A stretch of 64,000 nt of DNA, taken from Candidatus Azambacteria bacterium (lineage in GTDB: Bacteria; Patescibacteriota; Minisyncoccia; UBA10092). Both the position numbers and the translations under genes were made by a program. Numbering within the stretch: position 1 is the stretch's first letter; every line of letters starts with the position of its first letter. The notes under the pieces were generated by a model. It did not search any database. It saw nothing but the letters and a program-made list of their open reading frames with translations, and had not been told where the DNA came from. The stretch is from assembly GCA_003455995.1 (NCBI GenBank), contig DMPO01000001.1, positions 14,945 through 78,944 on the forward strand. The letters are read 5' to 3'. Shown here piece by piece: positions 1,289 through 32,482 of the stretch.

Positions 1289-1887
1289 AATATTTTTGTT
1301 TTTCCGCCAGAGGCGGGTCCGCCTCTGGCGGAAAATCTTCGACTTGCGAAGTCAACTTTTAAAATTTTAATATACGGCAGATTGGCGTCGCGGGCAGTGA
1401 ATTTTATTTCTCCATTTTTCAATCCGTATTCATACAGATCGCGCGTCAGCCGCACATCATCGAGGCAGTATTTTTTTAGTTCGTCCATTCTCCCCTGCCG
1501 CCAATAATCGACGGCGATGAGGCCGTTGGCGCTTTTCTTTTTTCCCAAAGTGTTAACACAGAGATCGTCCAAGCTAACCCGATGCCCCATGGCATTGACG
1601 ATTTCAGTCATAATGTCCAAACTGGGAATTTTCATGATGTCCACCGATAGATATTTTTTTAAAACCGGCAAATCAAAACCGTCGGTGTTGAAGCCGATAA
1701 TCAATTCGGTTTTTCTCAACAAATCCTCAAACGCCGGCAATTCTTTTTCCGTGAAAGTCAGGAATTTTTTATCGGCGTAAGAATAAACGCCGGCCACCGA
1801 CAGCAGAAGCTTATGCAGATTTTCTTTTCCGCCGACATCGGAAAATAAATTTTGCGTTTCAATATCCAGAACAATATGATTAGCCAT
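1267..1887 (-). CDS. DnaQ-like 3'-5' exonuclease (DEDD family)
   Basis: The N-terminal LDIETQNLF is an Exo I motif, and the fold pattern is RNase T/DnaQ-like. It overlaps the downstream Cas4-like gene by 22 nt. The 3' tail reads through the GC-rich palindrome at 1303-1336. Confidence 0.6.
   Translation of the reverse strand: MANHIVLDIETQNLFSDVGGKENLHKLLLSVAGVYSYADKKFLTFTEKELPAFEDLLRKTELIIGFNTDGFDLPVLKKYLSVDIMKIPSLDIMTEIVNAMGHRVSLDDLCVNTLGKKKSANGLIAVDYWRQGRMDELKKYCLDDVRLTRDLYEYGLKNGEIKFTARDANLPYIKILKVDFASRRFSARGGPASGGKTKILWTPSLF
1303..1336. repeat. GC-rich palindromic element TTCCGCCAGAGGCGG-GT-CCGCCTCTGGCGGAA (copy 1 of 3)
   Basis: A perfect 15-bp inverted repeat. The 15-mer CCGCCTCTGGCGGAA recurs exactly at 32468-32482 and with 1 mismatch at 15218-15232. 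Confidence 0.6.
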
Positions 1888-1893
1888 AAGATT

Positions 1894-2967
1894 TTATTCT
1901 TCTTCCTCGATTGCCGGTCCTTCGATTTGCAGGGGCTCGATTTCCCCCGCTTTTCCCGTAATTTTTATCACATCTTTGTCGACCTTGCCGAATTCCTTGG
2001 AAGCGCGATTATAGGCATTAACCGTCGTGCCCAAATTATTGCCCAATTTTTTCATATATTCGTCATAGCTCAAAAGATGTTTTTGCAGCATTTCCACATA
2101 TTTGCGGATTTCTTTCGCCGATTCTTCAATTTGCAGCGCCCGCAGACCCTGCATAACGGTTTGCAGATAAGCGAAAAATGATGTCGGCGAAACGATAATG
2201 ACATGCTTTTCCTTAAAAGCGTATTCAATCAAATCGCGCGTGTTAACCTTAATCGCTCCGACCTGGTTAACCAATAAATCGTAATAAATTCCCTCGGCGG
2301 GAATGAACATAAACGCGAAATCCATAGTATTTTCATTCGGTTTGATATATTTAGCCGTTTCGTCAATACGGTTTTTTAAATCGGCTTTAAATTGTTTTTC
2401 CAGTTCTTCTTTCCTATCTTGGTCTTTTTCATTCAAAATCCGGTTGTAATTTTCAAGCGAGAATTTGGAATCGATGGGAATAATTTTATCTTTGACAAAA
2501 ACCACCGCGTCGACAATGTCGCCATTCTTAAATTCGTACTGCATTTGGTAATTTTTCGGCGGCAGAACATTTTTTAAAACATTTTCCAAAAAATATTCAC
2601 CAAGAACGCCGCGATGTTTGGGATTTTTCAAAACATCTTCCAGACCCTGCAATTGGTCGGCGACATTCATCACTTGCTTGTTGGTTTCGTCCAGTTTCGT
2701 CAGCCGTTCGGTAACATCGCGGACAATTTTGGCGCTTTGCGCGAATTGCTGTTGGAACATCTTGGCCGAATCCCCCATTTTATTTTCCACCTGCGAACCG
2801 AAATTCTGCAGGGTTTGGCGCATTTCTTTCAACTGATCCTGAATCATTAAAATCGCTTGATTGTCCTGCGGTTTTTCTCCGGACTTTTTTCGCAACAAAA
2901 AATAAACCAGCATGGCGATTACCCCTGCCATCAAAATTAAAATAGTTAATAAAATTCCCTGATCCAT
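1894..2967 (-). CDS. rmuC: DNA recombination protein RmuC
   Basis: An N-terminal TM helix is followed by a long coiled coil and an RmuC-like C-terminal domain (FMFIPAEGIYYDL...VSPTSFFAYL). ATG at 2965-2967 is preferred; the ORF-track start at 3126 is a non-ATG extension. Confidence 0.8.
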   Translation of the reverse strand: MDQGILLTILILMAGVIAMLVYFLLRKKSGEKPQDNQAILMIQDQLKEMRQTLQNFGSQVENKMGDSAKMFQQQFAQSAKIVRDVTERLTKLDETNKQVMNVADQLQGLEDVLKNPKHRGVLGEYFLENVLKNVLPPKNYQMQYEFKNGDIVDAVVFVKDKIIPIDSKFSLENYNRILNEKDQDRKEELEKQFKADLKNRIDETAKYIKPNENTMDFAFMFIPAEGIYYDLLVNQVGAIKVNTRDLIEYAFKEKHVIIVSPTSFFAYLQTVMQGLRALQIEESAKEIRKYVEMLQKHLLSYDEYMKKLGNNLGTTVNAYNRASKEFGKVDKDVIKITGKAGEIEPLQIEGPAIEEEE

Positions 2968-3029
2968 TAAAATGATTTTATCATGCTTTTTGGATATTTC
3001 ACAATTTGGTGTAAAATAAAACCAAATAC

Positions 3030-3509
3030 ATGTTGCTTGATTCCAAAAGACCGTTTTATTTAATATCCGGAATATTGATTTTGGGTTTGTTGGGTATTGT
3101 TTTTTATTTTCAATATCAAAAAACAATTGATAAAAACTCCATTACTGTTATCACCGGCGATAAGCCCATAAAAATTCAAGTTGAGTTTGTCAAAACTTCT
3201 GAAGAATTGACTCGGGGATTGATGAATCGCGTTTCATTGGACGAAAATTCCGGAATGTTTTTTGTTTTTTCCGACGAAGCAACGCGAAGTTTCTGGATGA
3301 AAAATACTTTAATCCCGCTTGATATAATTTTTATTTCTTCAAATGGCCATATAAACGAAATAACAACTATGAATCCTTGCCAAGAAAATAATATCTGTCA
3401 GCCATATGAATCAAAATTGCCGGCGCAATTCGTTTTGGAAATCAATGCCGACCAAGCCGAAAAACGGAACATATCCCCCGGCGACATCATCCAACTCCCT
3501 CAAAAATAA
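3030..3509 (+). CDS. DUF192-domain protein
   Basis: N-terminal TM anchor; GMFFVF...LDIIFI pattern characteristic of DUF192 (COG1430). Confidence 0.55.
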   Translation: MLLDSKRPFYLISGILILGLLGIVFYFQYQKTIDKNSITVITGDKPIKIQVEFVKTSEELTRGLMNRVSLDENSGMFFVFSDEATRSFWMKNTLIPLDIIFISSNGHINEITTMNPCQENNICQPYESKLPAQFVLEINADQAEKRNISPGDIIQLPQK

Positions 3510-3510
3510 T

Positions 3511-4281
3511 TTACTTTATCAAATAAGTCAGGGTGACGCTTATGGCGATGTCCTGACTGCCGGGTTCGATTTGCGGAGATGATTTTGCTATCGCGCCTCC
3601 CATGCCCATCGCTTCATAAAACATCGGCGGTTCTCCGGCTGAATTTTCGCTAAAACCAATGATGCGGCCAAGACGGAAACCTGCCGTTTTGCCGGTGATT
3701 TTAGCTTTTTCTTTCGCCTGCTTGACCGCTTCCTCGCGCGCTTTATTTCTTAATTCTTCCGGCCTGTCCACCAGCATCGATATGGAATTGATTTGATTGG
3801 CGCCATTGGAAACCGCGCCGTCCAAAATGTCGCCAACTTTGGCAATATCGCGAATCGTAACGGAAAGCGACTGATTCAAAATATAGCCGGCTAGCGTTGA
3901 CTTGCCTTTATTGTAATCGTATTTCGGAGACAGATTATAGTTGTTGGTTTTGATGTCCTCATCTTTTATTCCCTGATTTTTCAGAAATTTAATCACCGAG
4001 TTCATCTTGGAAGAATTCTCGTTCTGGACCGAAATTGAATCTTTGCCCTCAGTCGATAATCCAATCTCAACTTTGGCGGTATCCGGCGCGGCTTTTACCT
4101 TGCCTTCTCCGGAAAAACTGACCGTTTGATAGGCATTCACCGCTCCGCCGTTGCGATAACTGTTTACCGCGCCAACCAATTGATTGAAACCGGCAAAAAC
4201 CAAAAATAGCGTCAAAATGATAAGACCGACGCACACAACTCTTCGTTCGCATTCCGGCAATTTATTATAATCAAAAGCCAT
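3511..4281 (-). CDS. SIMPL/DUF541 (BP26/OMP28-like) periplasmic protein
   Basis: The signal/TM segment and the ...RAKAREEAVKQAKEKA... segment are typical of the SIMPL domain. ATG at 4279-4281 is used; the ORF-track start at 4308 is non-ATG. Confidence 0.55.
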   Translation of the reverse strand: MAFDYNKLPECERRVVCVGLIILTLFLVFAGFNQLVGAVNSYRNGGAVNAYQTVSFSGEGKVKAAPDTAKVEIGLSTEGKDSISVQNENSSKMNSVIKFLKNQGIKDEDIKTNNYNLSPKYDYNKGKSTLAGYILNQSLSVTIRDIAKVGDILDGAVSNGANQINSISMLVDRPEELRNKAREEAVKQAKEKAKITGKTAGFRLGRIIGFSENSAGEPPMFYEAMGMGGAIAKSSPQIEPGSQDIAISVTLTYLIK

Positions 4282-4286
4282 ATTTT

Positions 4287-4655
4287 TTATTTTAATGGTA
4301 ATTGACAACCGCTTTCTTGCGATAATTTTTCAATGCCCTGTTCCCCAACTAATTTCTTCCCATCCGGAAAAATCCATGTCGGATAACCGGTAACGCCTTT
4401 TTCCAGACACGCTTGCGGATTTTTGGGACATTCGACATAGGATACGAATTGAAACGAACTGCCGAACGCCCTTTTTTCATTCTGGCAATGGGAACACCAG
4501 TCGGCGCCGTACATAGCAACTTTCTTTTCCGCCAAACATTTGGCAAAATCATCATATTGGGAAATGGCCGGCGGCGCCGATTTGTAAAAATACCACGCGA
4601 CAATAACAAGTGCCAAAATAATCAAACCGATTATGTATAATAATTTTTTATTCAT
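4287..4655 (-). CDS. Membrane-anchored thioredoxin-like protein (WCSHC active site)
   Basis: N-terminal TM followed by a CxxC motif (DWCSHC) in a thioredoxin-fold context. Alternative ATG at 4673 overlaps the upstream gene stop (ATGA). Confidence 0.6.
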   Translation of the reverse strand: MNKKLLYIIGLIILALVIVAWYFYKSAPPAISQYDDFAKCLAEKKVAMYGADWCSHCQNEKRAFGSSFQFVSYVECPKNPQACLEKGVTGYPTWIFPDGKKLVGEQGIEKLSQESGCQLPLK

Positions 4656-4669
4656 AAAAATTATGCACA

Positions 4670-5188
4670 TCATTCATCGCAGCAATCGACTAATTTATTC
4701 ATAATGTCCGTCAGCGTCCACGGTTTTTCTTCAGACGCGATTTTCTTCAATTCGGTGGTGTCAATCAATTTAAGGCGCAACGCCCAAAACAGGGAGTAAA
4801 TTTCATTGGCTTTGCCGTAAATTTCCTTGGCTTCCTCTTTTTTGCCGTCGGACTGTAATTTGGTACCCACTTCAATTAACCGCATGGTCGTCCCCAAAAG
4901 ATGCTTGGAAATGCACCAGGTCTCGCCTTCGTGCTTGTCAATTAATTTTTTCAGCAGCGATTTTCTTATTTCCCGCGCTTCCAAAAGAAGATCCAAATAA
5001 CCGTCTTTACCGGTCTTGGCGTTGGTAAAAAAGAAGTGTTCCTCCAAAGAAACCAAATTCATCACCGCGATGCTTAAATCCTCTTCGGTCGATAAATCAA
5101 CCTCACCGGATTTTTTCATCCGTTCTATTTTCTTCATCAATTCAGAAAATTTGTCGTTTTCTTCATTCATATTTCTATTATAATACAA
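4670..5188 (-). CDS. Hypothetical protein
   Basis: A 172-aa ORF that overlaps its neighbours in an operon-like way; no recognisable motif. Confidence 0.4.
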   Translation of the reverse strand: MYYNRNMNEENDKFSELMKKIERMKKSGEVDLSTEEDLSIAVMNLVSLEEHFFFTNAKTGKDGYLDLLLEAREIRKSLLKKLIDKHEGETWCISKHLLGTTMRLIEVGTKLQSDGKKEEAKEIYGKANEIYSLFWALRLKLIDTTELKKIASEEKPWTLTDIMNKLVDCCDE

Positions 5189-5840
5189 AAATCGCGATTC
5201 CCAAAATTATCATGGCGATTCCGCTCCACAATTTGATTCTGATATTTCCATCCTCTTTCCACGACTGCATTTTGGCAAGAAGAGTTTTATTGCTTGCGAT
5301 TAATAACGCAATGACGAGAGGCGAAACAAAAACCAGGTTATAGTATATCAAATACACCAGACCCTTCGCAAAAGTGGCCTGATCATGCAGAAGCCCCAAA
5401 ATCATCAGATACGGACCTCCGGTGCAGGGAAATTCATAAAGGCCGACCAAAACGCCGAGAAAAAACGCCGCCGGAATCGAGCCCTTTTCAATCAATGTCG
5501 CCATTTTTGGCTTGATAAAAGCGGGAATTTTAAGTTTTATCGGAAAGGCGGGAAAAAATTCATTCAATATACTGATCGCTCCCGCCAAAATCAAAATTGC
5601 CGCGCCGATCTTGCCCATAAAATGAGGCACATTAAAAAAATTGAGCGCCCTCATGATGCCGAGCCCGATTGATACATATATTAAAAATATGCCTGCAATA
5701 TACACCCCGCCGATTTTTATAATATTGGTTCGCGTCTTGCCGGCGTTAAAAAGAAAAGCAATTGTCAAGATTAAAACCGAAAAAGCGCAAAAATTTACGC
5801 TGTCGATAACAGCGGCGATTGTTACCAGAGAAATACTCAT
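5178..5840 (-). CDS. ccdA: Cytochrome c-type biogenesis protein CcdA / DsbD-family thiol-disulfide transporter
   Basis: Multi-TM protein with two Cys sites (VNFCAF and FPCTGGP); the FPCTGGP motif is typical of the CcdA/DsbD_2 family. Confidence 0.7.
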   Translation of the reverse strand: MSISLVTIAAVIDSVNFCAFSVLILTIAFLFNAGKTRTNIIKIGGVYIAGIFLIYVSIGLGIMRALNFFNVPHFMGKIGAAILILAGAISILNEFFPAFPIKLKIPAFIKPKMATLIEKGSIPAAFFLGVLVGLYEFPCTGGPYLMILGLLHDQATFAKGLVYLIYYNLVFVSPLVIALLIASNKTLLAKMQSWKEDGNIRIKLWSGIAMIILGIAIFVL

Positions 5841-5894
5841 ATTTCCTCTTCTTCGTCGTCGCTTAATGGTTTAGGCAAGATTGAGAATTTCATT

Positions 5895-6386
5895 TTAGGT
5901 CCGTTTAGCGAAGTATACTCCATCGTTAAAAATTTTCCAAGTCGCGCCGATAATCAAAAATCCCAACAGCCAGCCGGCGATAACATCCGATGTCCAATGA
6001 ACGCCGAGATATATCCTTGAAAATCCGATAAGAAAAATGAACGCGCCGGCCGCGATTGAAATTATTATTTTCTGCCATTTTTTACGACATAATTTGTAAA
6101 TAAAATAACCGATTATTCCGTAAAAAATAATCGCCATCATCGCGTGGCCGCTGGGAAATGAATAACCGCTTTCCTGTATCAATGCCAAACTCGCATCAGG
6201 TCGCGGACGGCGAACAATAAATTTCAAAATTTCTTTGATAATTTCGCCGCTTATTAAAGCGGCGACAAGAAAAACGGTCTCTTGTTTTTTTCTCAATAAC
6301 GCCAATATCGCAACCGCGACAACGCCAAAGCCGACAATAACTTGCCAATTTCCGAGATAAGTAACAAAAACCATAATTTGAAACAT
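5895..6386 (-). CDS. PAP2-family phosphatase (undecaprenyl-diphosphatase-like)
   Basis: PAP2 motifs KxxxxxxRP (KFIVRRPRP), PSGH and SRxxxxxHxxxD (SRIYLGVHWTSD). Confidence 0.75.
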   Translation of the reverse strand: MFQIMVFVTYLGNWQVIVGFGVVAVAILALLRKKQETVFLVAALISGEIIKEILKFIVRRPRPDASLALIQESGYSFPSGHAMMAIIFYGIIGYFIYKLCRKKWQKIIISIAAGAFIFLIGFSRIYLGVHWTSDVIAGWLLGFLIIGATWKIFNDGVYFAKRT

Positions 6387-6445
6387 TATTTTTATTATAT
6401 AACTTATTTAAACAAATAAAAACCCCGTCTTAGCGGGGTATTTAA

Positions 6446-7537
6446 TTACCTACCGTGTCTTATTTCGGAAATGTGTTTTACACCGTCCCTGATCATCAAA
6501 TCTTTCAACCCTTCATTGATCTGATGGACGATGGCGGGGCCCTTATATACAAGGGCGGAATAAATTTGGATCAGATCGGCGTATTTTAACATTTCATACG
6601 CCCGCGCCGCGTTGGAAATCCCGCCGACCGCAATAATTGGAATTTTTTTATTAATTTTAATGCTCAAATATACAATCGTGGTAAGCGCTTTTTTCCAAAG
6701 CGGTCTGCCGCTTAATCCCCCTTCCTCGGTTGTCGGCACAGTTAGTCCGTCGCGAGTGACAGTGGTATTTACGGCAATCAAGCCGTCAACGCCACAATCA
6801 AAACAAACCTCTAACACATCATCAATCTCGTCCAATCCTAAATCGGGCGAAATTTTTACCAAAATTTTTTTGGGCTTTTGTTTAGTTAATTCCGCAAGCG
6901 CCTTATTCTCTTTTTTCAAGAATGAAATTATATCTTTCAAATGCGCTTTTTCTTGCAGCTTTCTCAATCCGGGCGTATTCGGCGAGCTGACATTTATTAC
7001 GAAATAGTCGCCACAAAGATACAGTTGCCTGAATGAATAACAGTAATCCATAGCCGCCATTTCAAGCGGTGTATTTTTCGATTTTCCCAAACTGATTCCC
7101 AGCGGAATATCCGATCCGGCAGTTCTTCTTAAATGCCAAGATACGGTGTCGGCGCCGGCGCTTGGAAACCCCATGCGATTGATAATTGCTTCATCTTCCG
7201 GAAAGCGAAAAATGCGCGGCTGTGGATTTCCCGGCTGTTCGAATCTTGTCACCGTTCCCATTTCCAAAAAACCGAACCCCAGCGATTGGAACCCTCTTAA
7301 AACGACTCCATTTTTGTCGAATCCGGCGGCCAGTCCGACAGGATTGCGAAATTTCAACCCAAATATTTCCCGCTCCAAAGCAGGGTCTTCAAAAGTCGCG
7401 CATTGCGCTACCAACTTTGCCAACCATCTTTGATTTCCGACAAAACTTAACAGGGCCAAAACCGCTTCATGAGCATCTTCCGGGTCTTTCCTAAACAACT
7501 TAAACAAAATCGGCCTCACCATCCATCTGTAGATCAT
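6446..7537 (-). CDS. pyrD: Dihydroorotate dehydrogenase (quinone), class 2
   Basis: FGLKFRNPVGLAAGFDKNG ... IGVGGI motifs; an N-terminal membrane-association helix is typical of class 2 PyrD. Confidence 0.9.
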   Translation of the reverse strand: MIYRWMVRPILFKLFRKDPEDAHEAVLALLSFVGNQRWLAKLVAQCATFEDPALEREIFGLKFRNPVGLAAGFDKNGVVLRGFQSLGFGFLEMGTVTRFEQPGNPQPRIFRFPEDEAIINRMGFPSAGADTVSWHLRRTAGSDIPLGISLGKSKNTPLEMAAMDYCYSFRQLYLCGDYFVINVSSPNTPGLRKLQEKAHLKDIISFLKKENKALAELTKQKPKKILVKISPDLGLDEIDDVLEVCFDCGVDGLIAVNTTVTRDGLTVPTTEEGGLSGRPLWKKALTTIVYLSIKINKKIPIIAVGGISNAARAYEMLKYADLIQIYSALVYKGPAIVHQINEGLKDLMIRDGVKHISEIRHGR

Positions 7538-7589
7538 CTTCTCCGCCCTCCTTTCTTTTTATACTTTTTTAAACAACTTGGTGACACTA

Positions 7590-7614
7590 AAATAACACGC
7601 AATGCGTGTTATTT
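7590..7614 (-). terminator. Hairpin AATAACACGCA-ATG-CGTGTTATT downstream of tRNA-Gln
   Basis: A perfect 10-bp stem lies immediately 3' of the tRNA on the minus strand, followed by a TTTTA run. Confidence 0.45.
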
Positions 7615-7623
7615 GTCAATAAC

Positions 7624-7693
7624 TGCGGGACAGGGAGTCGAACCCCAATTTCATGGTTCAGAGCCATGCGTGCTACCATTACACCATCCCGCA
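7624..7693 (-). tRNA. tRNA-Gln (anticodon CUG)
   Basis: Cloverleaf on the reverse complement: acceptor TGCGGGA/TCCCGCA, anticodon stem CATGG/CCATG, loop CTCTGAA, T-loop TTCGACT. Confidence 0.7.
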
Positions 7694-7705
7694 ATATATC
7701 AGTTT

Positions 7706-12857: not shown

Positions 12858-13328
12858 TTATTTGTATACTTTCACCTTCGCCGGCCTCAAAACCTCGCCT
12901 TTCATTAAATATCCTTTTTGTTTTTCTTCCGCCACTACGCCCGATTCATCTCCATCAACCGATTCCATCGCCTCATGTTTCAACGGATCAAACTTCTCTC
13001 CAGCTACTTTCATTGCTTCTACCCCATTCGCTTTTAAATAGTCTTCCAGCTGTTTTTTGATGCTCTCGATGCCCGCGTCCAAAGTTCCCGCCCTGTCAAA
13101 ATTATCCATAATTTCCAAAAGGGGCAAAATAAACATTTTCGACATCCACTCTTTTATTTCTCTTCCCTGTTGCTCCATATCCTTCTTCAAGTTGAGGTAA
13201 TCGGCCTTGGCGCGCTTCCATCCGTTCAGATACTCCTCGGATTGTTTTTTGCATTGTTCCAGCTCGCTTAATTTAGTTGTTTCACCCTGCGGGTGACCAC
13301 CCGAAGGGTGGTTATTTTCTTCGTTCAT
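12858..13328 (-). CDS. grpE: Nucleotide exchange factor GrpE
   Basis: Coiled-coil N-terminus plus GrpE-like C-terminal fold; positioned between hrcA and dnaK as in dnaK operons. Confidence 0.8.
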   Translation of the reverse strand: MNEENNHPSGGHPQGETTKLSELEQCKKQSEEYLNGWKRAKADYLNLKKDMEQQGREIKEWMSKMFILPLLEIMDNFDRAGTLDAGIESIKKQLEDYLKANGVEAMKVAGEKFDPLKHEAMESVDGDESGVVAEEKQKGYLMKGEVLRPAKVKVYK

Positions 13329-13867: not shown

Positions 13868-14761
13868 ATGAAAACTATAACCGAAAATGGATTAACTTGG
13901 ACCGATATTGAAAAGCCGACTAAAAAAGACCTTGATTGGCTGAAAAACAGTTTTAATATTCATACCATTGTTTTGGACGAGTTAATCCCCGCATCCCAAA
14001 GGGAGAAGGTTGAATATTTTGACAACTATATGTTTTTGGCGATGCATGTGCCGGTTTTCCATCAGACGAAAAAAACTACCAAGCCGATTGAACTGGATTT
14101 TTTGATCGCCGAAAATCATTTGATAACAATTCATAACGAACCGATTGAACCGCTCAAGGATTTCCTCAAAAAATGCGAAAACAAGCCCGAATTGAAATCC
14201 AAGTATTTCAATTCCACAACCGGACATTTGTTTTACTTTATCAGCGAAGAACTGCTTAATTTCGCTGAAAGGCAATTAGTACATATCGGTAAAAATATCA
14301 ACCAAGTCGAAGACGATATGTTCAAGGGCGCGGAACGGGAACTCATCAGAGACATCTCGGTCATCAAGAGAGATGTTTTGGATTTCCGAGTCGCCATCAG
14401 ACCGCTTTGCAGGATATTTCATTCCTTGGCGAATCGGGGAATAAATTTTTGGCCGGAAAAAAGCGAAGATTTGAAAATTTATTTCAACGACCTCATCGAC
14501 GATTACGAAAGAGTGTGGAATGAAATAGCCAACTACACCGACACCATCAACGCTCTGGAAGACACGCACACTAATCTGTTGAGCCACAAAACCAGTACCA
14601 TTATCAGAACCTTCACCATCCTATCTTTCATCACTTTTCCGGCGATGCTGGTCGTCGCCGTTACCCAAATGAATCCGGCCGATTTTTGGATTGTGGCCAT
14701 AACCATTCTCTTTACAACGACATTTATGTGGGTGTATTTTAAGACCAAAAAATGGCTTTGA
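13868..14761 (+). CDS. corA: CorA-family magnesium/cobalt transporter
   Basis: Cytoplasmic domain followed by two C-terminal TM helices, with a GMN-like motif (TQMNP) at the first TM end. Confidence 0.65.
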   Translation: MKTITENGLTWTDIEKPTKKDLDWLKNSFNIHTIVLDELIPASQREKVEYFDNYMFLAMHVPVFHQTKKTTKPIELDFLIAENHLITIHNEPIEPLKDFLKKCENKPELKSKYFNSTTGHLFYFISEELLNFAERQLVHIGKNINQVEDDMFKGAERELIRDISVIKRDVLDFRVAIRPLCRIFHSLANRGINFWPEKSEDLKIYFNDLIDDYERVWNEIANYTDTINALEDTHTNLLSHKTSTIIRTFTILSFITFPAMLVVAVTQMNPADFWIVAITILFTTTFMWVYFKTKKWL

Positions 14762-16149
14762 AATTCTACAATTTTCTTACCCGTAAAAAAGAAAACTTTA
14801 AGTCCTTGCGCCCCAAGCAAGTTGGTTTTTACGCTTGCGGGCCGACGGTTTACGACTACGCGCACATCGGCAATCTGCGGACTTATATTTTTGAAGACAT
14901 TCTGAAACGAACACTGGAATATAACGGCTATAAAGTTAATCACATAGTAAACATCACCGATGTGGAAGATAAGATTATCCGCGAGTCGCAAAAAACCGGT
15001 AAATCCATCGCCGATTTCGTCAAGCCCTATGAAAAAGCGTTTTTTGAGGACTTGAAAAAATTGAACATAGAAAAAGCGCAAAAATATCCGAAAGCGACGC
15101 GGCATATTAAAGAAATGATAAAAATTATCGAGGCGCTTCTCAAAAAAGGATTGGCTTATGAATCCGACGGTTCAATTTATTTTGATATTTCCAAATTCTC
15201 CGCCAAAGGCGGATCCGCCTCTGTCGGAAAGTACGGAAAATTGAGCGGTCTGAAGAGCCGGGAGCTAAAGGCGGGCGCGCGAGTTGATGTCGATGAATAC
15301 GACAAGGCAAGCGCCGAGGATTTTGTTTTGTGGAAAGCCCCAAAGGAGAGCAATCTCCCTACTTGGAGCGCGTCTTTCGGCGCCGGCCGCCCCGGTTGGC
15401 ACATAGAATGTTCGGCGATGTCCATGAAATATCTGGGCGAAACATTCGATATTCACGCCGGCGCCGTTGATTTGCTGTTCCCCCACCATGAAAATGAAAT
15501 CGCCCAGTCCGAAGGAGCGACCGGCAAACCGTTTGTAAAATATTTTATTGAAGGCGAACATTTGTCGGTTAACGGCGAGAAAATGTCCAAATCCTTGGGC
15601 AATATATTCAATCTCCACGATTTGGAAGCGAAAAAATTCGATCCCCTCGCCCTTCGTTATTTGGCGCTTACCGCCCACTATCGTTCAAAACTGAATTTCA
15701 CTTGGGAGTCGCTCCAATCCGCCCAAAACGCGCTATCTAATTTAAGAGACTTAATTGTTAATCTGAAAAACCAACCGCGTAGCGATGTATTAATACATGA
15801 TAACCAAAAAATCGTTAACCGATTTAAGAAAAAATTCTTGGGCCGCATCAACAACGATATGGAAATGCCGGCCGTCGTGGCGCTTTTATGGGAAGTGGTA
15901 AAATCCGAAAAATTAAGCCCCAAAACAAAATACGATTTGATAATTGATTTTGATAAAGTTTTTGGGTTGAATCTCGGCAAAATAGAAGTTAAAAAAATTC
16001 CGGTGAAAGTTTTGCAATTGGCAAAAGAACGCGAAAAATATCGTCAAGCAAAAAACTTTGCCAAATCCGATATCCTCCGCAAAAAAATAGAATCCCTCGG
16101 CTGGCTCATTGACGACTCCTCCTCCGGCCCGAAAATAAAAAAGAAATAA
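14752..16149 (+). CDS. cysS: Cysteine--tRNA ligase
   Basis: HIGN motif (HIGNLRTY), KMSKS motif and the zinc-binding Cys/His pattern. The GC-rich palindromic element sits in-frame at 15203-15234. Confidence 0.93.
   Translation: MALKFYNFLTRKKENFKSLRPKQVGFYACGPTVYDYAHIGNLRTYIFEDILKRTLEYNGYKVNHIVNITDVEDKIIRESQKTGKSIADFVKPYEKAFFEDLKKLNIEKAQKYPKATRHIKEMIKIIEALLKKGLAYESDGSIYFDISKFSAKGGSASVGKYGKLSGLKSRELKAGARVDVDEYDKASAEDFVLWKAPKESNLPTWSASFGAGRPGWHIECSAMSMKYLGETFDIHAGAVDLLFPHHENEIAQSEGATGKPFVKYFIEGEHLSVNGEKMSKSLGNIFNLHDLEAKKFDPLALRYLALTAHYRSKLNFTWESLQSAQNALSNLRDLIVNLKNQPRSDVLIHDNQKIVNRFKKKFLGRINNDMEMPAVVALLWEVVKSEKLSPKTKYDLIIDFDKVFGLNLGKIEVKKIPVKVLQLAKEREKYRQAKNFAKSDILRKKIESLGWLIDDSSSGPKIKKK
15203..15234. 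repeat. GC-rich palindromic element (copy 2 of 3), in-frame within cysS
   Basis: CTCCGCCAAAGGCGG-AT-CCGCCTCTGTCGGAAA encodes ...SAKGGSASVGK... in cysS; compare ...SARGGPASGGK... at copy 1 in the exonuclease tail. Confidence 0.55.
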
Positions 16150-26852: not shown

Positions 26853-26854
26853 AT

Positions 26855-27286: not shown

Positions 27287-27313
27287 ATGGTTATCCCCTG
27301 TTTAGCATACTTA

Positions 27314-27340
27314 TCCACAAAGTTACCCACAATCTCCCAC
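27314..27340 (-). promoter_or_regulatory. MraZ operator: three direct GTGG[G/A] repeats
   Basis: On the minus strand GTGGG-AGATT-GTGGG-TAACTTT-GTGGA, upstream of mraZ. This resembles the known MraZ-box direct-repeat architecture. Confidence 0.5.
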
Positions 27341-27407
27341 CGACAGATTTATATTAATACAAATTAAAAAGGCCTGCAATAGGCTTCGTTGTGGATAAGT
27401 CAGGTTT

Positions 27408-27479
27408 TGGGCATTGCTGGAATCGGACCAGCGGCCTTTCCGATGTGAACGGAACGCTCTGCCACTGAGCTAAATGCCC
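27408..27479 (-). tRNA. tRNA-Val (anticodon CAC)
   Basis: Reverse complement GGGCATTTAGCTCAGTGGCAGAGCGTTCCGTTCACATCGGAAAGGCCGCTGGTCCGATTCCAGCAATGCCCA; anticodon stem TTCCG/CGGAA, loop TTCACAT. Confidence 0.7.
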
Positions 27480-28066
27480 TATATTTTCAATTTATCTACG
27501 AGTTTTTCGTGTTTGAAATCCAAAAGATCGCGAAGGAAGCGATCGTACATGCCGTAGCGATAGTAAAATTCTTTGGTTGTCATCAGCGCGTATTTTATTT
27601 CCTTGCCAACCTCCGCTTCCAAATCCTTGATAAAATTATTGAACTTGGCCGGTTTTACATTATCGCCGACAATCAGAAGGTCGGCGCGAGAAGTGTCGGA
27701 ATTTATGAACACCCCCGCCAGCAATGCCAGTTTGATTCTCCCCAAACTTTTAATGCGGTTCAGCATTTTATTTTTTGAAGCCGGACTGGTCTTTGCCAGT
27801 AATTCTTTGAGTTCTTCGTAAAATTCAAATCCCCTGTTGGCTCTAAAGGTTTTTTTGCCCTTTGAACCTTTTCGGATTAAAAATCCGATGTTCGCCAAAT
27901 CGTCGAGATTTCTATTAACTTGAACTAATTTGAAATCAATTTTTTTTGAAATGTCCTGCGGTCCAAAACTTTCGTCCGGATTGTACAAAAACAGTTTCAA
28001 AATCCGCACTCGCACGGGCGAATCGAATAGCGCATCTAAAGTTGATTCGGATAATATCTTGGCCAT
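27479..28066 (-). CDS. Hypothetical protein with probable winged-helix domain
   Basis: A 195-aa ORF. The N-terminal segment RVRILKLFLYNPDESFGPQDISKKI...VQVNRNLDDLANIGFL is wHTH-like. Its stop abuts the tRNA-Val 5' end. Confidence 0.45.
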   Translation of the reverse strand: MAKILSESTLDALFDSPVRVRILKLFLYNPDESFGPQDISKKIDFKLVQVNRNLDDLANIGFLIRKGSKGKKTFRANRGFEFYEELKELLAKTSPASKNKMLNRIKSLGRIKLALLAGVFINSDTSRADLLIVGDNVKPAKFNNFIKDLEAEVGKEIKYALMTTKEFYYRYGMYDRFLRDLLDFKHEKLVDKLKI

Positions 28067-28086
28067 CGGGCGTTTTGATTAGTTTT

Positions 28087-28467
28087 CTATTTCAATTCCA
28101 CCGCGGCGCCCGCTCCTTCCAATTTCTTCTTGAGTTCTTCGGCCTCGGCTTTGTTAACCCCGCTCTTGATAACTTGCGGAGCGGAATCAACAAGCTGTTT
28201 TGCCTCTTGAAGACCCTTATCGGTCGCTTCGCGAACTATCTTGATGACCGCGATCTTCTGGTCGCCGGCGCCGGCTAAAACGACATCAAAGGCCGATTTT
28301 TCTTCCACCGCCGCCACGAGCTCGCCCGCTCCGGCCGCCGGCATCGCCATCATCGGCGCCGATGCCGAAACCCCAAATTTTTCTTCCAGCGCCTTTACCA
28401 GTTCGGAAAGTTCCAGCGCCGTCAATTTTTCTATTTCTTCTATGATCTTGTTAAATTTATCACTCAT
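28087..28467 (-). CDS. rplL: 50S ribosomal protein L7/L12
   Basis: Ala-rich hinge and the conserved C-terminal domain ...[24 protein letters not shown]... Confidence 0.95.
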
Positions 28468-28494
28468 ATTTTTATTTTTTTATTTATTATTTTA

Positions 28495-29016
28495 TTATTT
28501 TTTCGACCTTATATTATTTAGTATGCCAACTAAATTGCGCATATTGCCCGATAACACGGTAACCAAACCGGAAAGCGGAGCGGCAATGGTTCCGACCACT
28601 TGCCCCAAAAGAATTTCGCGAGAAGGAAGTTTTGCCAAAGCGATAATTCCATCTTTGCCCTGCCAAGTTAATCCGAGAAAGCCGCCTAAAATTTTAAGCG
28701 CATCATTGATCTTGGAAAATTTCCAAATGGAATTCGCCACGGGCGCCGGATCGTCATAACCGAATACCACCCCGACCTGTGTCTTAAAATCATCAATTTT
28801 GGCGTCTTCAAACTTTCCGAATCTTAAAACGCGGTTAATCAGGGTTTTCTTGGCGACTTTATATTCGGCGTTCATCGCTTTCAGGGCTCGCCTTAATTCC
28901 ATCGCCTTGCTGACCGGCAATTTGTTGAAATCCACCAAAAACGCCGCTTTGGCCCGGCTGAATTTATCGGTTAAATCGTTTAAAATATTTGATTTTTGCT
29001 CTCGCGTTAATGGCAT
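28495..29016 (-). CDS. rplJ: 50S ribosomal protein L10
   Basis: L10 fold; positioned upstream of rplL. Confidence 0.88.
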   Translation of the reverse strand: MPLTREQKSNILNDLTDKFSRAKAAFLVDFNKLPVSKAMELRRALKAMNAEYKVAKKTLINRVLRFGKFEDAKIDDFKTQVGVVFGYDDPAPVANSIWKFSKINDALKILGGFLGLTWQGKDGIIALAKLPSREILLGQVVGTIAAPLSGLVTVLSGNMRNLVGILNNIRSKK

Positions 29017-29129
29017 ATATTTAAAATTTTCAATTATTAATTTTCAATTTTCAATAAATGTTTCAATTTTTGAACATTAATACATTAAAAAATTCATTAT
29101 AAATTAGAAATTTGAAATTTGAAATTAAA

Positions 29130-29262
29130 AATTGCGAACTAATGTTCGCAAACAACAGAGCTAAAAGCTTTTGTTCTCGGAGAGACTTACCGCGCCCTTC
29201 GTAGCTTTAGCGAAGAAGGGTATCTTGCTCTCTGTCTGCGAACATTCTCACTCTATCAAAAA
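29130..29262 (-). promoter_or_regulatory. Possible L10 (rplJ) leader structure
   Basis: The long 5' UTR upstream of rplJ has complementary segments (GCGAACTAATGTTCGC; CGAACATTCTCAC...). Its position matches the L10 autoregulatory leader, but the structure is not verified. Confidence 0.25.
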
Positions 29263-29295
29263 TAAAAAGGGGCGTCAAGCCCCTGTTTATTTTTG
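29258..29295. terminator. Bidirectional intrinsic terminator after trmD
   Basis: AAAAATAAAAA-GGGGC-GTCAA-GCCCC-TGTTTATTTTT, symmetric with A/T tracts on both sides. Confidence 0.65.
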
Positions 29296-29997
29296 ATGTT
29301 TTTTGCGCCACTCTTCTATTTTTTTGTGGTTGCCGGAAAGAAGAACTTTAGGAACTGGATATTTTTTATTTTTATATTTAATGACTTCCGGACGGGTATA
29401 TGTCGGAACGCCGACGCCGTATCTTTTTTCTTCAAGCGATTCGTCTTTGCCTAAAACGCCCGAAATGTGGCGCGACACCGCGTCAACGACGATCATTGCC
29501 GGTAACTCTCCTCCCGTTAAAACATAAGGACCGATAGATAATTCGCTAATTTTTAATTTCAAATTTCTAATTATTTTTTTAATTCGTTCGTCTATCCCTT
29601 CGTAGTGACCGGCAATCATTACAATATGTTTATATTTTTTTGCGAAGTCGCTCGCCATTTTAGAATTAAATTGTTTGCCCGAAGCGGAAAAAAGAATTAC
29701 AAGGGGGTTTTTCAACCCCTCTTTTTTTCTCCCCTTATCAGGGGAGAATTTATTGAGCGCTTTTGCAAGCGGTTCGATTTTGAACACCATCCCCGCTCCT
29801 CCGCCGTATGGTTTATCGTCAACCCGCCCGAATGACCATTCGGTCGGGCGGGCTTTCTTATGTTTGTCGTTAGTAAAATCGCGGAGATTGACTATATTTA
29901 TTTTTATTTTCCCGCTTTTCCGCGCGCGTTTAATAATACTCTCGTTTAGATAGGAATCGAAAATTTTCGGAAAAATTGTAATTATGTCGAATTGCAT
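29287..29997 (-). CDS. trmD: tRNA (guanine37-N1)-methyltransferase TrmD
   Basis: SPOUT fold; conserved ...GHYEGIDERI... and GGELPAM motifs. Contains a ~30-aa insertion (KFSPDKGRKKEGLKNP...) relative to typical TrmD. Confidence 0.9.
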   Translation of the reverse strand: MQFDIITIFPKIFDSYLNESIIKRARKSGKIKINIVNLRDFTNDKHKKARPTEWSFGRVDDKPYGGGAGMVFKIEPLAKALNKFSPDKGRKKEGLKNPLVILFSASGKQFNSKMASDFAKKYKHIVMIAGHYEGIDERIKKIIRNLKLKISELSIGPYVLTGGELPAMIVVDAVSRHISGVLGKDESLEEKRYGVGVPTYTRPEVIKYKNKKYPVPKVLLSGNHKKIEEWRKKHQK

Positions 29998-30008
29998 ATT
30001 GCTTAACC

Positions 30009-30038
30009 AAAACCCCTCCGCAACTGCGGAGGGGTTTT
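30009..30038. terminator. Perfect palindromic terminator AAAACCCCTCCGCA-ACT-GCGGAGGGGTTTT downstream of the KH gene
   Basis: A 12-bp GC-rich stem flanked by A4 and T4 runs. Confidence 0.65.
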
Positions 30039-30046
30039 GGAATAGA

Positions 30047-30367
30047 TTATAGTTGTCTTAAATCGTCAACAACTTGATCCATATCTCTTGTCGGTCTTTC
30101 TCTCACGGGACGAGTCGAACCCTCCGGCTCTTCTATCTTCAAATTGACGCGCGCGTTGTGACGGGCACCAATTATGCGAAGCAGAGTTCGAATGGCTTTC
30201 GCGGTGGATCCCTGTCGGCCGATAAGCATTCCCATATCTTCTTGGTTTACTTTAAGGTCTAAAAGGACTCCCATCTCGTCCACCTTGCGGTCAATTTTGA
30301 CATCATCCGGATGATCAACAATCGACTTCACAAGGTACTCAAGAAATTCCTGATCAACATTAGCCAT
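30047..30367 (-). CDS. KH-domain RNA-binding protein (KhpA-like, UPF0109)
   Basis: KH GxxG loop (IGRQGSTAKAIR); lies between rpsP and trmD as in conserved operons. ATG 30365-30367 is used. Confidence 0.75.
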   Translation of the reverse strand: MANVDQEFLEYLVKSIVDHPDDVKIDRKVDEMGVLLDLKVNQEDMGMLIGRQGSTAKAIRTLLRIIGARHNARVNLKIEEPEGSTRPVRERPTRDMDQVVDDLRQL

Positions 30368-30458
30368 TTCTTTGAACAATCTTTTTAAAGTTTTAGTAGG
30401 TCGACCTCCCCAAAGGGGTAGCTACTAATTGTCCGCAATATATCAAAAATTGATATGC

Positions 30459-30487
30459 TTGTCAAACGATTTTTTAATACTTACCAT
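30459..30487 (+). promoter_or_regulatory. Promoter-like TTGTCA-17-TACCAT immediately upstream of repeat copy 1
   Basis: -35 TTGTCA (30459-30464), 17-nt spacer, -10 TACCAT (30482-30487). Confidence 0.35.
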
Positions 30488-30536
30488 GGAGCCAAGAGCC
30501 GGCAAACCGGATGGACGAACCGAGAAACGGTGTTTA
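30484..30536 (+). repeat. 53-bp direct repeat, copy 1 (CCATGGAGCCAAGAGCCGGCAAACCGGATGGACGAACCGAGAAACGGTGTTTA)
   Basis: Matches 52 of 53 nt with 31513-31565. The flanks diverge completely on both sides. Confidence 0.85.
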
Positions 30537-30667
30537 TTGATTTTCCCAGCCCTGTGGACAACTGTTTGCAACTGTCAACGCATTGTGCTAATATAAGAAC
30601 GATCGAAAGATCGAGATTTCTAAAGCTTGGAGGCCTCGCAAGAGGTCTCCTTTGCGTTTTTATTTTG
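30494..30667 (+). ncRNA. Candidate sRNA (~170 nt) whose 5' module is repeat copy 1
   Basis: Predicted TSS is ~7 nt after the -10. Internal CGATC-GAAA-GATCG hairpin. Intrinsic terminator GGAGGCCTC-GCAA-GAGGTCTCC plus TTTGCGTTTTTATTTT (30629-30667), overlapping the 3' end of the convergent NYN gene. Confidence 0.4.
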
Positions 30668-31403
30668 TTATTTCTTTTTTCCAACAAATGAAATCCTTTA
30701 TTTTCTGTATATCAAATATGAATAACCCGCCCTCGACTAATTCGCTTAATTCACTGGAAACCCTTCTCGCAGTGGCAAATAATGTAACTCTTTTATCGTC
30801 TTTTAACAATTGTCTAACGGGATCGGCGAAATCACTATCCCCGCTCCATAAAATAAAATTATCAATATTATTTTTATCATAATCAATTAACATATCCCTT
30901 CCGATTTCAACATCAAAATTACATTTTAAATCTTCAACCGATTTGACGCCTTGATTGTTAAGTTGCTTTAACTGATTGTTTAAAAATTCTATCGTTTCAA
31001 TTGTTAATTTTTGTAATAAAGGTTTTCTAATAAATTCTTTTAAAATATTCGGCGAATTCGGGGGGACACTGGAAACATCTATAGAAAGCCGCATTATTTT
31101 TACAGGTTTTGTCTTAACATCGTATCCGAATCTGCCGATATCTTTTACAAACCGTTCTGATTCAGCGTCTCCTATTAAAGTGCCATTGTAAAATTTGACG
31201 GCGTTGATAGTGTCAAAAGAATCTAAAAATTGTTTTAATCTTTTGGGCTCAATATGCCAACCCAGTTTAACCGACCATGGCTTAACATTCGCATAGTCAA
31301 TATAAATATTTGTTTTTCCGCCAAAAATAATTTCTAATTCTTTAATCCTGTCGGGGTGCTGGTTGGATAATTCTTTTAATCTCGGAGTTTTAGGATTGAA
31401 CAT
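30660..31403 (-). CDS. NYN/LabA-like (DUF88, PIN-like) predicted RNase
   Basis: N-terminal NIYIDYANV and central ILWSGDSDFADPVRQLLKDDKRVTLFA match NYN-domain catalytic motifs. Flanked by the 53-bp direct repeats. Confidence 0.6.
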   Translation of the reverse strand: MFNPKTPRLKELSNQHPDRIKELEIIFGGKTNIYIDYANVKPWSVKLGWHIEPKRLKQFLDSFDTINAVKFYNGTLIGDAESERFVKDIGRFGYDVKTKPVKIMRLSIDVSSVPPNSPNILKEFIRKPLLQKLTIETIEFLNNQLKQLNNQGVKSVEDLKCNFDVEIGRDMLIDYDKNNIDNFILWSGDSDFADPVRQLLKDDKRVTLFATARRVSSELSELVEGGLFIFDIQKIKDFICWKKEITK

Positions 31404-31512
31404 TCATTTTTTAATTAGTTTTATTCGTGGATTATTATAAGATAATCTCAAATTTATGTAAATAAAAAAATCGCTTCACAATCGTGAAATGATTTTTTTT
31501 GCGCGATACTCG

Positions 31513-31565
31513 CCATGGAGCCAAGAGCCGGCAAACCGAATGGACGAACCGAGAAACGGTGTTTA
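31513..31565 (+). repeat. 53-bp direct repeat, copy 2
   Basis: CCATGGAGCCAAGAGCCGGCAAACCGAATGGACGAACCGAGAAACGGTGTTTA, one G/A difference from copy 1. Confidence 0.85.
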
Positions 31566-31929
31566 GAGGAGAGAGATTTATACCCTCTCCGAATAAACGG
31601 GTCGGGCATTTCTAACTCGCACTGTCACCCGATCCGATTCCGTTTACCGACTCGTTGGCTCGATAGCGATTATCTTTTCTGTTTCGTCCTCCGCAACTTG
31701 GAACCATTCCAAGCGCCGGACTTAACAAGAGGATTTATCCTCTTCTGAAACTTCCACTGAATAAGTGAAAATCTCGGAATAAGAGGGAGAGTTGCGTATC
31801 TCCCATGGCTTGCCGAAACCACTCGGCTGCCATACGGCGGGGAACCCTCCCCGCAAACTTCTTGATGGATCGAGTCTAGTCCCATTTTGGGAATCCCTCG
31901 TCAAGCCGTCCATCAACGGCAACGGCAAC
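31566..31929. other. GC-rich, ORF-poor structured non-coding region (strand and class unknown)
   Basis: About 360 nt with many local and long-range complementarities (GAGGAGAGAGATTTATACCCTCTCC; AAACGG...CCGTTT; GGGAATCCC; a GGCAAC x3 run). GC is well above the window average. Only short overlapping ORFs are present, none with a start context. Confidence 0.4.
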
Positions 31930-32235
31930 CTATGAGAGCGCTGCCCCTATAACTTCTATCGCGGCCTTGCGGCCTGCCTCCATCCCCCGGCCATGCGCAA
32001 ACCTGGCCGCATTCTGGCCCTGCCCGGACGGGTCTCTCTTAGACTCTCCGGACTCATCTGCCCACCTGGTATACTCTACATATGCCAGGTAGCACTCCTT
32101 TTTATAGGCCGCATTAGCGGCCTTTTCTGCCACTGCCTTTACAGCAGCGGCCTTTTCTGCCACTGCCTTTACAGCAGCGGCCTTTGCGGCTTCAGTGCCA
32201 AAAATTCGGCACAAAAAATTTACTAATTTTTTCAT
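31930..32235 (-). CDS. Small Ala/Lys-rich protein with internal 10-aa tandem repeat; GC-rich gene
   Basis: Strong SD (GAAGGAGGAAAAA-ATG) at ATG 32233-32235. An exact 30-nt tandem duplication at 32121-32180 encodes AAVKAVAEKA x2. Gene GC is ~55-60% versus ~38% for the window. Confidence 0.5.
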   Translation of the reverse strand: MKKLVNFLCRIFGTEAAKAAAVKAVAEKAAAVKAVAEKAANAAYKKECYLAYVEYTRWADESGESKRDPSGQGQNAARFAHGRGMEAGRKAAIEVIGAALS

Positions 32236-32454
32236 TTTTTCCTCCTTCGCCCCGCCTCCCTTTCGGTGAGGGCTTATGGGCACTCCATACTCTAACCGCT
32301 AGTAAGAAGGTTTCTGGAGACCAGACGGGTTTAGGTTTGCTCTCCAGCTTATCTCATTACTAAAAAAGGCGATTGAGAGCTCTTTACTTACTATACTTAA
32401 TATAGAGAAGAGAGTTTACAATCGCCTTTTTACAAGATTTACGGCTCTTATACG

Positions 32455-32482
32455 CCGCCTGTCCGCCTCTGGCGGAACCCTC
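32455..32482. repeat. GC-rich palindromic element (copy 3 of 3, partial), in the 5' region of the small protein gene
   Basis: CGCCTGTCCGCCTCTGGCGGAACC contains the exact 15-mer CCGCCTCTGGCGGAA. Confidence 0.5.

Follow-up and report, generated by a model that had tools for sequence, protein, structure and literature searches.

Why does one GC-rich palindromic 15-mer recur, twice inside protein-coding genes, in a 64-kb stretch of DNA from Candidatus Azambacteria bacterium (contig DMPO01000001.1, positions 14,945 to 78,944; all 64,000 nucleotides are referred to here as the window)? We consider it probable that a tiny insertion element, non-autonomous and with the 15-mer as one of its arms, is the cause. 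Its sequence, CCGCCTCTGGCGGAA, occurs exactly at 1319-1333 and 32463-32477 on the plus strand and at 1302-1316 on the minus strand, with one mismatch at 15215-15229 (plus) and with two at 15198-15212 (minus). Allowing up to two mismatches, the window contains 6 matches where 0.09 are expected, and none of 100 dinucleotide shuffles reaches 6, in agreement with a preliminary description of this DNA, which held the three-fold recurrence to be unlikely by chance. The same description had placed the 15-mers at 1320-1334, 15218-15232 and 32468-32482, which is 1-5 nt too high, and had put the GC content at ~38%, against a measured ~0.40 (range 0.31-0.48). It had also treated the 15-mer as the repeat unit. 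Each arm is itself a hairpin (6-bp stem, 3-nt loop), and two such arms, inverted copies of one another, make up the actual unit, a GC-rich double-hairpin element of 30 nt, T-CCGCC-NNN-GGCGG-A / T-CCGCC-NNN-GGCGG-A.

Copy 1 (1303..1332, T-CCGCC-AGA-GGCGG-G / T-CCGCC-TCT-GGCGG-A, or TTCCGCCAGAGGCGG-GT-CCGCCTCTGGCGGAA when written as arms) is a full 30-nt element that scores 56-57 bits with a covariance model (E ~1e-13), and together with the bordering TTT (1300-1302) and AAA (1333-1335) it forms a 36-nt near-perfect palindrome. It lies in the gene of a 206-aa DnaQ/RNase H-like 3'-5' exonuclease (1267..1887, minus strand; Pfam DNA_pol_A_exo1 and RNase_H_2), where it translates as F-SARGGPASGG-K, 11 codons upstream of the stop. 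Copy 2 (15199..15228, T-CCGCC-AAA-GGCGG-A / T-CCGCC-TCT-GTCGG-A, or CTCCGCCAAAGGCGG-AT-CCGCCTCTGTCGGAA; 42-47 bits) is also full length and carries one G>T change that disrupts a stem pair. It lies in cysS (14752..16149, plus strand), the gene of a 465-aa cysteine--tRNA ligase (CysRS), and translates as F-SAKGGSASVG-K, in the same frame relative to the element as copy 1 and with its flanks TTC (Phe) and AAG (Lys) in frame. Both copies are thus full inverted repeats, read in frame as similar Gly/Ser peptides in cysS and in the exonuclease tail, all of which the preliminary description had stated correctly. Its claim of three loci stands for the motif, which is present at each, but the full element is found at only two. 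Copy 3 (32453..32476; 18 bits, E 0.003) is a decayed element in non-coding DNA of which one arm is matched by the model. Its intact arm, T-CCGCC-TCT-GGCGG-A, spans 32462-32476, and the context reads CGCCGCC-TG-TCCGCCTCTGGCGGA; the CGCCGCC-TG on its left would be the 5' half of the partner arm, the 3' half having been deleted. Copy 3 is situated in the leader of a GC-rich, Ala-rich open reading frame (31930..32283, minus strand); a textbook TTGACA-17-TATACT promoter was recognised by eye on the same strand near 32575-32545.

A position-weight scan and the covariance model with filters off both return the two full copies and the single arm, with everything else at noise level, which amounts to 2.5 copies in 64 kb or a density of ~1 per 25-30 kb. 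A candidate fourth, decayed copy at 645-680 had a noise-level score in both scans and was rejected because the LPPVSDPVVFD encoded there is a native conserved peptide that three orthologues share without an indel. Avoidance of or attraction to restriction sites was likewise rejected, as GGATCC (7 against 5.2 expected) and TTTAAA (85 against 92 expected) both occur near expectation in the window.

Evidence for insertion comes from cysS. In an alignment of 120 CysRS orthologues, most read SKF-K-xYGKL where the window protein reads SKF-SAKGGSASVGK-YGKL, so that the ~10-aa segment, for which the preliminary description had suggested an insertion, is absent from most of the family; a solved CysRS structure (PDB 8qhp) aligns with a 9-residue gap at the same place. 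The peptide is not confined to this site. Ten-residue segments of the form SAxGG[SP]AxG[GW] are found at no fewer than four different CysRS positions across lineages: after GL (P0006, P0009, P0010), after REL (P0022, P0038, P0043, P0044, P0050, P0077), at the site used in the window (P0033, P0099) and near the C-terminus (P0013). In one Falkowbacteria cysS such a segment sits beside the KMSKS region, again at another position. These alignments show multiple independent insertions into one gene family. At the nucleotide level, an empty cysS site (AAA TTT/AAG in L134, the slash marking the junction) can be set against filled ones, AAA TTT-(30 nt)-AAA AAA in L135, GAA TTA-(30 nt)-AAA GTT in L136 and GGT CTC-(30 nt)-AAG in L137. 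In at least nine comparisons of filled with empty sites, the filled site is longer by exactly 30 nt, T-CCGCC...GGCGG-A, and has no duplicated flank. In the cysS copy of the window, one adjacent codon has also been lost.

The exonuclease gene gives a similar picture. Empty orthologues are 196-197 aa long and end in ...KYSGF/KIKTSWTPSLF, whereas a filled clade of 205-206 aa, 76-100% identical to the window protein, ends in ...NRGF-SAKGGSASGG-KTKTTWTPSLF. The exonuclease insert is one old insertion at a TTT/AAA junction. Five further exact 30-nt insertions were found by comparing remnants of tRNA genes with the intact tRNA copy of the same locus. The comparisons show that insertion occurs preferentially between T-rich and A-rich triplets (TTT/AAA, TTC/AAA, TTG/AAG, GTT/GG), and several of these sites sit in loop regions of the tRNA-gene remnants.

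To see how far the element extends beyond the window, we scanned 185,579 species genomes with CCGCC-N3-GGCGG-N2-CCGCC-N3-GGCGG, a pattern that fixes the stem sequence and for which diversity and copy numbers are underestimates. It matched at least 120 loci. Among the matches listed, to which the family counts below refer, ~110 are true copies and the other dozen or so are chance matches in high-GC genomes. The true copies share features that lie outside the scan pattern, namely the centre, the loops and the 5' TTYT and 3' ARAA flanks, with the consensus TTYT-CCGCC-RRA-GGCGG-AT-CCGCC-TYY-GGCGG-ARAA. The centre reads AT in 83 copies, AC in 15 and GT in 11. Loop 1 ends with A in 103 of 109 copies and loop 2 begins with T in 105 of 109, and T at -3 occurs together with A at +30 in 76 of 111. 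All carriers are metagenome-assembled genomes (MAGs) or single-amplified genomes. By record title they belong to Patescibacteria of many classes (~49 loci), Omnitrophota (13), the PVC phyla Kiritimatiellae, Verrucomicrobia, Lentisphaerae and Planctomycetes (13), Ignavibacteria and Bacteroidota (5, including two 1.6-Mb long-read contigs) and uncultured Gammaproteobacteria (~11), plus a few others. A groundwater study describes gene exchange of Patescibacteria with Omnitrophota or Bacteroidota (PMC12455944), that is, among the same phyla that carry the element.

The copies are scattered, some inside genes or at their termini, others between genes or in dead tRNA copies, with no common relation to promoters or gene ends; ~70% are intergenic or near gene ends, and over half are non-coding. 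In L035 (a ribosomal protein operon), L027 and L087, canonical elements are in frame at the extreme N-termini of S5 (MDKGINKF-SARGGSAFGG-K), PheT and a C-terminal processing protease, as named from open reading frame (ORF) translations; within 3.5 kb of a ribosomal protein operon there are three copies. MAGs of Kiritimatiellae and Verrucomicrobia have the element inside a longer repeat that is conserved, CATAGGAATTTT-element-ACAATCCGTCTT (L004:4485, L009:4588 and 6409, L043:676, L079:7326), which suggests a larger repeat unit in those genomes. A phage origin was rejected, since 2.9 million viral contigs contain only ~2-4 copies of the canonical form. BLAST searches of plasmid and E. coli genome collections with the low-complexity filter on gave no match, and in Rfam no family reached the gathering score for the three window sites, with only chance microRNA-like hairpins below threshold. 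No description of the element, its sequences and peptides included, was found in open-access full text, a search that left most subscription journals outside its scope.

What is conserved in these copies could be one long palindrome or two separate hairpins. In a 109-sequence alignment, the closing pair of the first arm (columns 6-20) is UA in 89 and CG in 10, and that of the second arm (columns 21-35) is UA in 93 and CG in 13. Double changes from T-A to C-G within arms number 23, against 3.8 +/- 1.7 after shuffling (0 of 500 shuffles reach 23); the closing pairs do not covary across arms, and the same changes break the pairing of the long palindrome. Variant partner arms also stay self-complementary, as in CCAGCC/GGCTGG (L136), CCGCT/AGCGG (L036), CCTCC/GGAGG (L081) and TGCC/GGCA (L114). 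The best fold is one long hairpin for perfect copies and two hairpins for variant copies. Covariation within arms and the compensated variant arms together indicate that the conserved object is the double hairpin, which would imply a single-stranded state at some step. Palindromy of the flanks was rejected as a general rule: beyond -4/+31 pairing falls to 31-39%, a random level, and a pre-existing palindrome tip hosts only some copies.

The geometry is not tied to one stem sequence. A scan of 0.9 Mb for two adjacent perfect 5-bp/3-nt hairpins 2 nt apart, irrespective of sequence, returned a few further units besides 123 canonical ones. Of these few, one lies in the window at 13282..13311 and has CACCC/GGGTG stems (T-CACCC-TGC-GGGTG-A / C-CACCC-GAA-GGGTG-G). 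It falls in the part of grpE (12858..13328, minus strand) that encodes the N-terminus and is read in frame as HPSGGHPQG, a segment that the GrpE proteins of L134, L136 and L137 lack. CACCC/GGGTG stems also occur at L096:756, and a CAGCC/GGCTG double hairpin occurs in L169. Other short lineage-specific inserts were noted in the same region of CysRS (ALGRPAGL, ARARPTEGSFG and expanded SAQGGPAQPKADQPWAGSGW in P0035, P0070, P0044 and P0077); these may represent additional families of hairpin elements, or insertions nested in one another.

How can such an element reside in essential genes? Whichever strand and frame of the unit is read, no stop codon is met, and since its length is 30 nt the reading frame is never broken. 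The three frames encode SAxGG[SP]AxGG, PPxA[DG]PPxA and RxRR[IVT]RxxR. Copies at least 80 codons deep in ORFs make up 31 of 111, and 28 of these 31 (90%) use the SAxGGSAxGG frame. The target phases alone would give a different distribution: within window genes TTTAAA is found in the TTT AAA phase 27 times and in the xxT TTA AAx phase 41 times, the xTT TAA phase being impossible. The excess of the Ser/Ala/Gly frame over the target phases points to selection at the protein level, and therefore the inserted element is probably translated.

The element also appears to be held at the nucleotide level. We compared seven insert-bearing exonuclease orthologues whose synonymous third-position identity to the window is 0.50-0.64. 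In six of the seven, all 8 stem codons are identical at their third positions, and the flanking TTT and AAA are kept too; at p ~0.55, the chance of 8/8 identical is <1% per deep pair. The loops (AGA/AAA, TCT/TCC) and the centre (CCC/TCC) vary, and one lineage has a decayed arm. Such identity means that the stems are constrained or re-homogenised at the nucleotide level, and because they are conserved at synonymous sites, the element may have the added property of a protein recognition site, the alternative that the preliminary description had offered.

These data are also what one would expect of a nucleic-acid motif that benefits its host, either a protein-binding site or an RNA or DNA structure serving mRNA stability, replication or recombination, which selection maintains and insertion only delivers. 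In its favour, the stems and the TTT/AAA flanks are invariant in orthologues that are almost saturated at their other synonymous sites, several phyla have retained one and the same sequence, and a second stem family has the geometry in common with the first. We nevertheless regard this explanation as unlikely. The positions of the copies follow neither promoters nor gene ends, and the density in the window is low. Terminator function does not fit, since both strands of the element read T-run, hairpin, A-run, with no T-tract after the hairpin on either strand, and unlike intrinsic terminators copies lie inside ORFs. A host-beneficial motif would still need an insertion mechanism, and it overlaps with the insertion-element reading, as a form of domestication, instead of replacing it.

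If the element inserts, its neighbourhood may point to the enzyme involved. Paired copies 0.8-1.8 kb apart are found in L009, L027, L035, L086, L087 and L112; a composite transposon was rejected here, as the pairs flank or sit in ordinary genes (rpsE, pheT, a protease) and not a transposase. In L040, L046 and L074 the element has a small GIY-YIG gene (Pfam PF01541) as its immediate neighbour, and in L004 one lies ~200 nt away. Among the matches listed, the element is within 200 nt of 4 of the 9 GIY-YIG genes in the scan loci, against ~0.8 expected. In L046 and L074 it is inserted in the D-loop, and in L040 in the anticodon loop, of a partial tRNA-gene duplicate, with the intact tRNA on the opposite side of the GIY-YIG gene. 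A second sample of 80 metagenomic loci (L142-L221) was chosen only for the presence of a GIY-YIG relative. Here the GIY-YIG gene is directly upstream of or overlaps a same-strand tRNA gene, often tRNA-Arg, in 70 of the 80 loci, and in 50 of the 80 a partial copy of that tRNA follows beyond the GIY-YIG ORF. Hairpin arms fall in tRNA remnants, in D-, anticodon- or T-loops, in 17 of 21 cases; as the remnants make up ~1.5% of the sequence of the 80 loci, this is an enrichment of ~50-fold. Exact 30-nt insertions relative to the intact tRNA copy are found in L168, L169 and L189. The GIY-YIG genes in both sets (Slx1/YhbQ-like) encode ~75-90 aa, and their arrangement with tRNA genes looks like a homing cassette that would target tRNA genes. 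The association of arms, tRNA remnants and GIY-YIG genes is real, yet it is no proof that GIY-YIG mobilises the element; the remnants may be neutral, loop-rich landing sites.

These observations can be assembled into a mechanism for the small insertion element. New copies enter as an exact 30-nt insertion, preferentially at T-rich/A-rich sites, with no target-site duplication. The two hairpins would be the structure that is recognised or propagated, which suggests a single-stranded DNA (or RNA) intermediate. This could be a 30-nt dumbbell, whose joined ends would recreate the central GGA/TCC junction. Mobilisation would take place in trans, by a structure-specific enzyme encoded outside the element; the small Slx1/YhbQ-like GIY-YIG nuclease cassette, which itself appears to invade tRNA genes, is the only candidate to which the data point, and a weak one, and an HUH/RAYT-type enzyme is a putative alternative. 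Presence in several phyla would reflect horizontal spread among co-occurring groundwater and sediment bacteria. After insertion, the stems are kept at synonymous sites while the loops and centre drift.

Several results weigh against this reading. No transposase or dedicated enzyme was identified, and ORF clustering over the ~110 listed loci gave no recurrent transposase. In a tblastn search with an IS200 TnpA query against ~1.1 Mb from ~109 loci, L101 was the only match, and there was none in the window; as this sole TnpA has unrelated end hairpins, a link to HUH/IS200 was set aside within the scope of that one query. The window contains no GIY-YIG gene. In the 80-locus sample, 41 of the 50 tRNA remnants beside GIY-YIG genes are without arms. 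Were the insertion purely selfish and decaying, its stems would not be expected to stay conserved at one locus over long times. The preliminary description had raised strain polymorphism at these sites, and clusters at 90% identity show no empty allele: all aligned CysRS sequences at least 97% identical carry the insert, and the exonuclease cluster, judged by length only, consists of three proteins of 206 aa and one 73-aa fragment. Both coding copies of the window are old and fixed in this lineage, and current mobility is therefore without support.

The GIY-YIG association admits another explanation, in which the element is a repair scar: nuclease breaks at TTT/AAA-like loops, for example those made by a tRNA-targeting GIY-YIG enzyme, would be sealed with a templated 15- or 30-nt hairpin filler, a by-product and not a transposon. 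This would accommodate the ~50-fold enrichment of arms in the loops of remnants abutting GIY-YIG genes, the four of nine listed GIY-YIG genes with an element no more than 200 nt away, the lack of target duplication and the existence of single arms. We find it improbable all the same, as there is no known source or template for a filler identical across several phyla. Only nine GIY-YIG genes occur across the ~110 listed loci and most elements are far from any; a tRNA-like context applies to only ~4-6 of the 111 listed elements; most tRNA remnants have no arms; and the remnants may simply be neutral, hairpin-rich places to land.

A DNA uptake signal, akin to DNA uptake sequences and uptake signal sequences (DUS/USS) and built up by biased uptake during competence, is much more doubtful still. 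Patescibacteria carry competence genes, and such a signal would suit an element whose DNA is conserved even within coding sequence, in a frame that is tolerated. However, uptake sequences arise by point mutation and substitution at ~1 per kb, whereas the window holds 2.5 discrete copies at ~1 per 25-30 kb and the copies are exact 30-nt insertions; unrelated phyla would need a shared receptor, and the covariation fits a folded structure and not a linear word. Lastly, the idea of a repeat due to chance, of an artefact from assembly or adapters, or of convergent selection for a peptide, to which the BamHI site GGATCC at the centre (as in synthetic linkers) and the exclusively metagenome-derived carriers might point, is effectively refuted by the shuffles, by the recovery of copies from many laboratories, short- and long-read data, a single-cell genome and 0.7-1.6-Mb long-read contigs, by loops and centres that vary and copies inherited across orthologue clades, and, for a peptide function, by the non-coding majority of copies.

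The insertion element that we favour has relatives in behaviour among several known systems. Rickettsia palindromic elements (RPE) are palindromic, lie in frame in genes including essential ones, are translated, and are also intergenic. The element described here resembles them, being in frame in ORFs according to orthologue comparison and frame bias, and probably translated. It differs in that RPE are ~100-150 bp long and restricted to Rickettsia, while the element has 30 nt, two short hairpins and an unrelated sequence and occurs in several phyla. With repetitive extragenic palindromic (REP) sequences and REPINs it shares short GC-rich hairpins arranged as an inverted doublet able to form one long hairpin, non-autonomy, and conserved stems with variable loops (the loop classes RRA and TYY being complementary). 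REPs, however, are extragenic and lineage-specific, have a conserved GTAG-type 5' tetranucleotide and accompany a RAYT gene flanked by REPs. The element has no GTAG, has copies inside genes and occurs in several phyla, and no RAYT was found with a query of the IS200 type only.

MITEs (miniature inverted-repeat transposable elements) and PATEs are likewise short, non-coding, dispersed and palindromic, and use an enzyme in trans. MITEs usually measure 50-500 bp, have terminal inverted repeats that match a parent insertion sequence and mostly duplicate their target; the element has 30 nt, shows no duplication in at least nine comparisons, and no parent element was found between or beside its copies. 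The preliminary description had compared the 15-mer with REP- or MITE-like elements that tolerate in-frame insertion. In-frame insertion holds, given orthologues without the segment, exact 30-nt differences and other positions in the same protein; REP or MITE identity does not, for the element is not confined to extragenic DNA, leaves no target-site duplication and shows no linked transposase. The byps of Magnusiomyces mitochondria are GC-rich 27-55-nt inserts within coding sequences that derive from mobile hairpins. The ribosome skips them, for which matching take-off and landing codons are needed, whereas the element is flanked by TTT and AAA and its length is a multiple of three. The frame bias argues for ordinary translation and not for skipping of this kind.

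Closest in build are the double-hairpin elements (DHE) of Allomyces mitochondria and the GC clusters of yeast mitochondria (GC42), tiny GC-rich hairpins of AT-rich genomes that occur in coding and non-coding DNA and have no known transposase; in DHE the mobile unit is, as here, two adjacent short GC-rich hairpins. In GC42 the stems evolve more slowly than synonymous sites and the loops vary (PMC4478555), the same pattern as in the stems of the exonuclease copies. These systems are organellar and eukaryotic, and GC42 has 42 nt and duplicates an AG target (PMC4478555), whereas the element is bacterial, 30 nt long and free of duplication, with a TTT/AAA-type target. The element thus works like REPIN, RPE and mitochondrial double-hairpin elements, yet fails defining features of each.

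If this reading is true, few bacterial insertion elements known would be as small, and the element would be the first of the RPE or mitochondrial DHE kind shown to be common to Patescibacteria, Omnitrophota, the PVC phyla and Ignavibacteria. It would account for one class of indels, 10 residues long, that conserved proteins of candidate-phyla bacteria contain and that affect alignments, phylogenies and structure models, and it would mark the exchange of DNA between uncultivated bacteria that live together. It also poses a mechanistic question, namely how a double hairpin of exactly 30 nt is inserted with no target duplication while its stems stay intact, for which the tRNA remnants beside GIY-YIG cassettes offer a testable entry point. 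More tentatively, as a possibility that we do not hold to be the likely outcome, the element may stand for an undescribed class of bacterial mobile DNA. Its members would be 30-nt dumbbell double hairpins of at least two stem families, which would move through a single-stranded intermediate into T/A loop sites with no duplication of the target, spread across phyla of ultra-small bacteria and of the uncultivated bacteria found with them, and be translated as 10-residue Gly/Ser linkers in essential proteins such as CysRS, GrpE, S5 and PheT; they would be kept by selection or by a dedicated, possibly GIY-YIG-linked, enzyme.

Window proteins have identical counterparts in GW2011 Azambacteria MAGs. 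The gene of the DnaQ-like exonuclease belongs to a syntenic cluster (512-3126) together with RmuC and a PD-(D/E)XK (Cas4-like) nuclease. Stop and start codons overlap in this cluster, and the 3' end of the exonuclease gene overlaps the start of the nuclease gene (512..1288); the same order is conserved in L138, L140 and L141. Downstream of rpsP, ~1.1 kb (~31450-32600) has no convincing gene and no Rfam match; it contains the promoter and the Ala-rich ORF mentioned with copy 3, the ORF having a 30-nt tandem duplication, as well as a long hairpin, GGCGATTG...CAATCGCC. A LOOT RNA (Rfam RF03000) was detected at 45441-45557 on the minus strand with 75.4 bits, above the gathering score. Finally, GATC is under-represented in the window (155 against 233 expected from a maximal-order Markov estimate), a deficit that may reflect a restriction-modification system.

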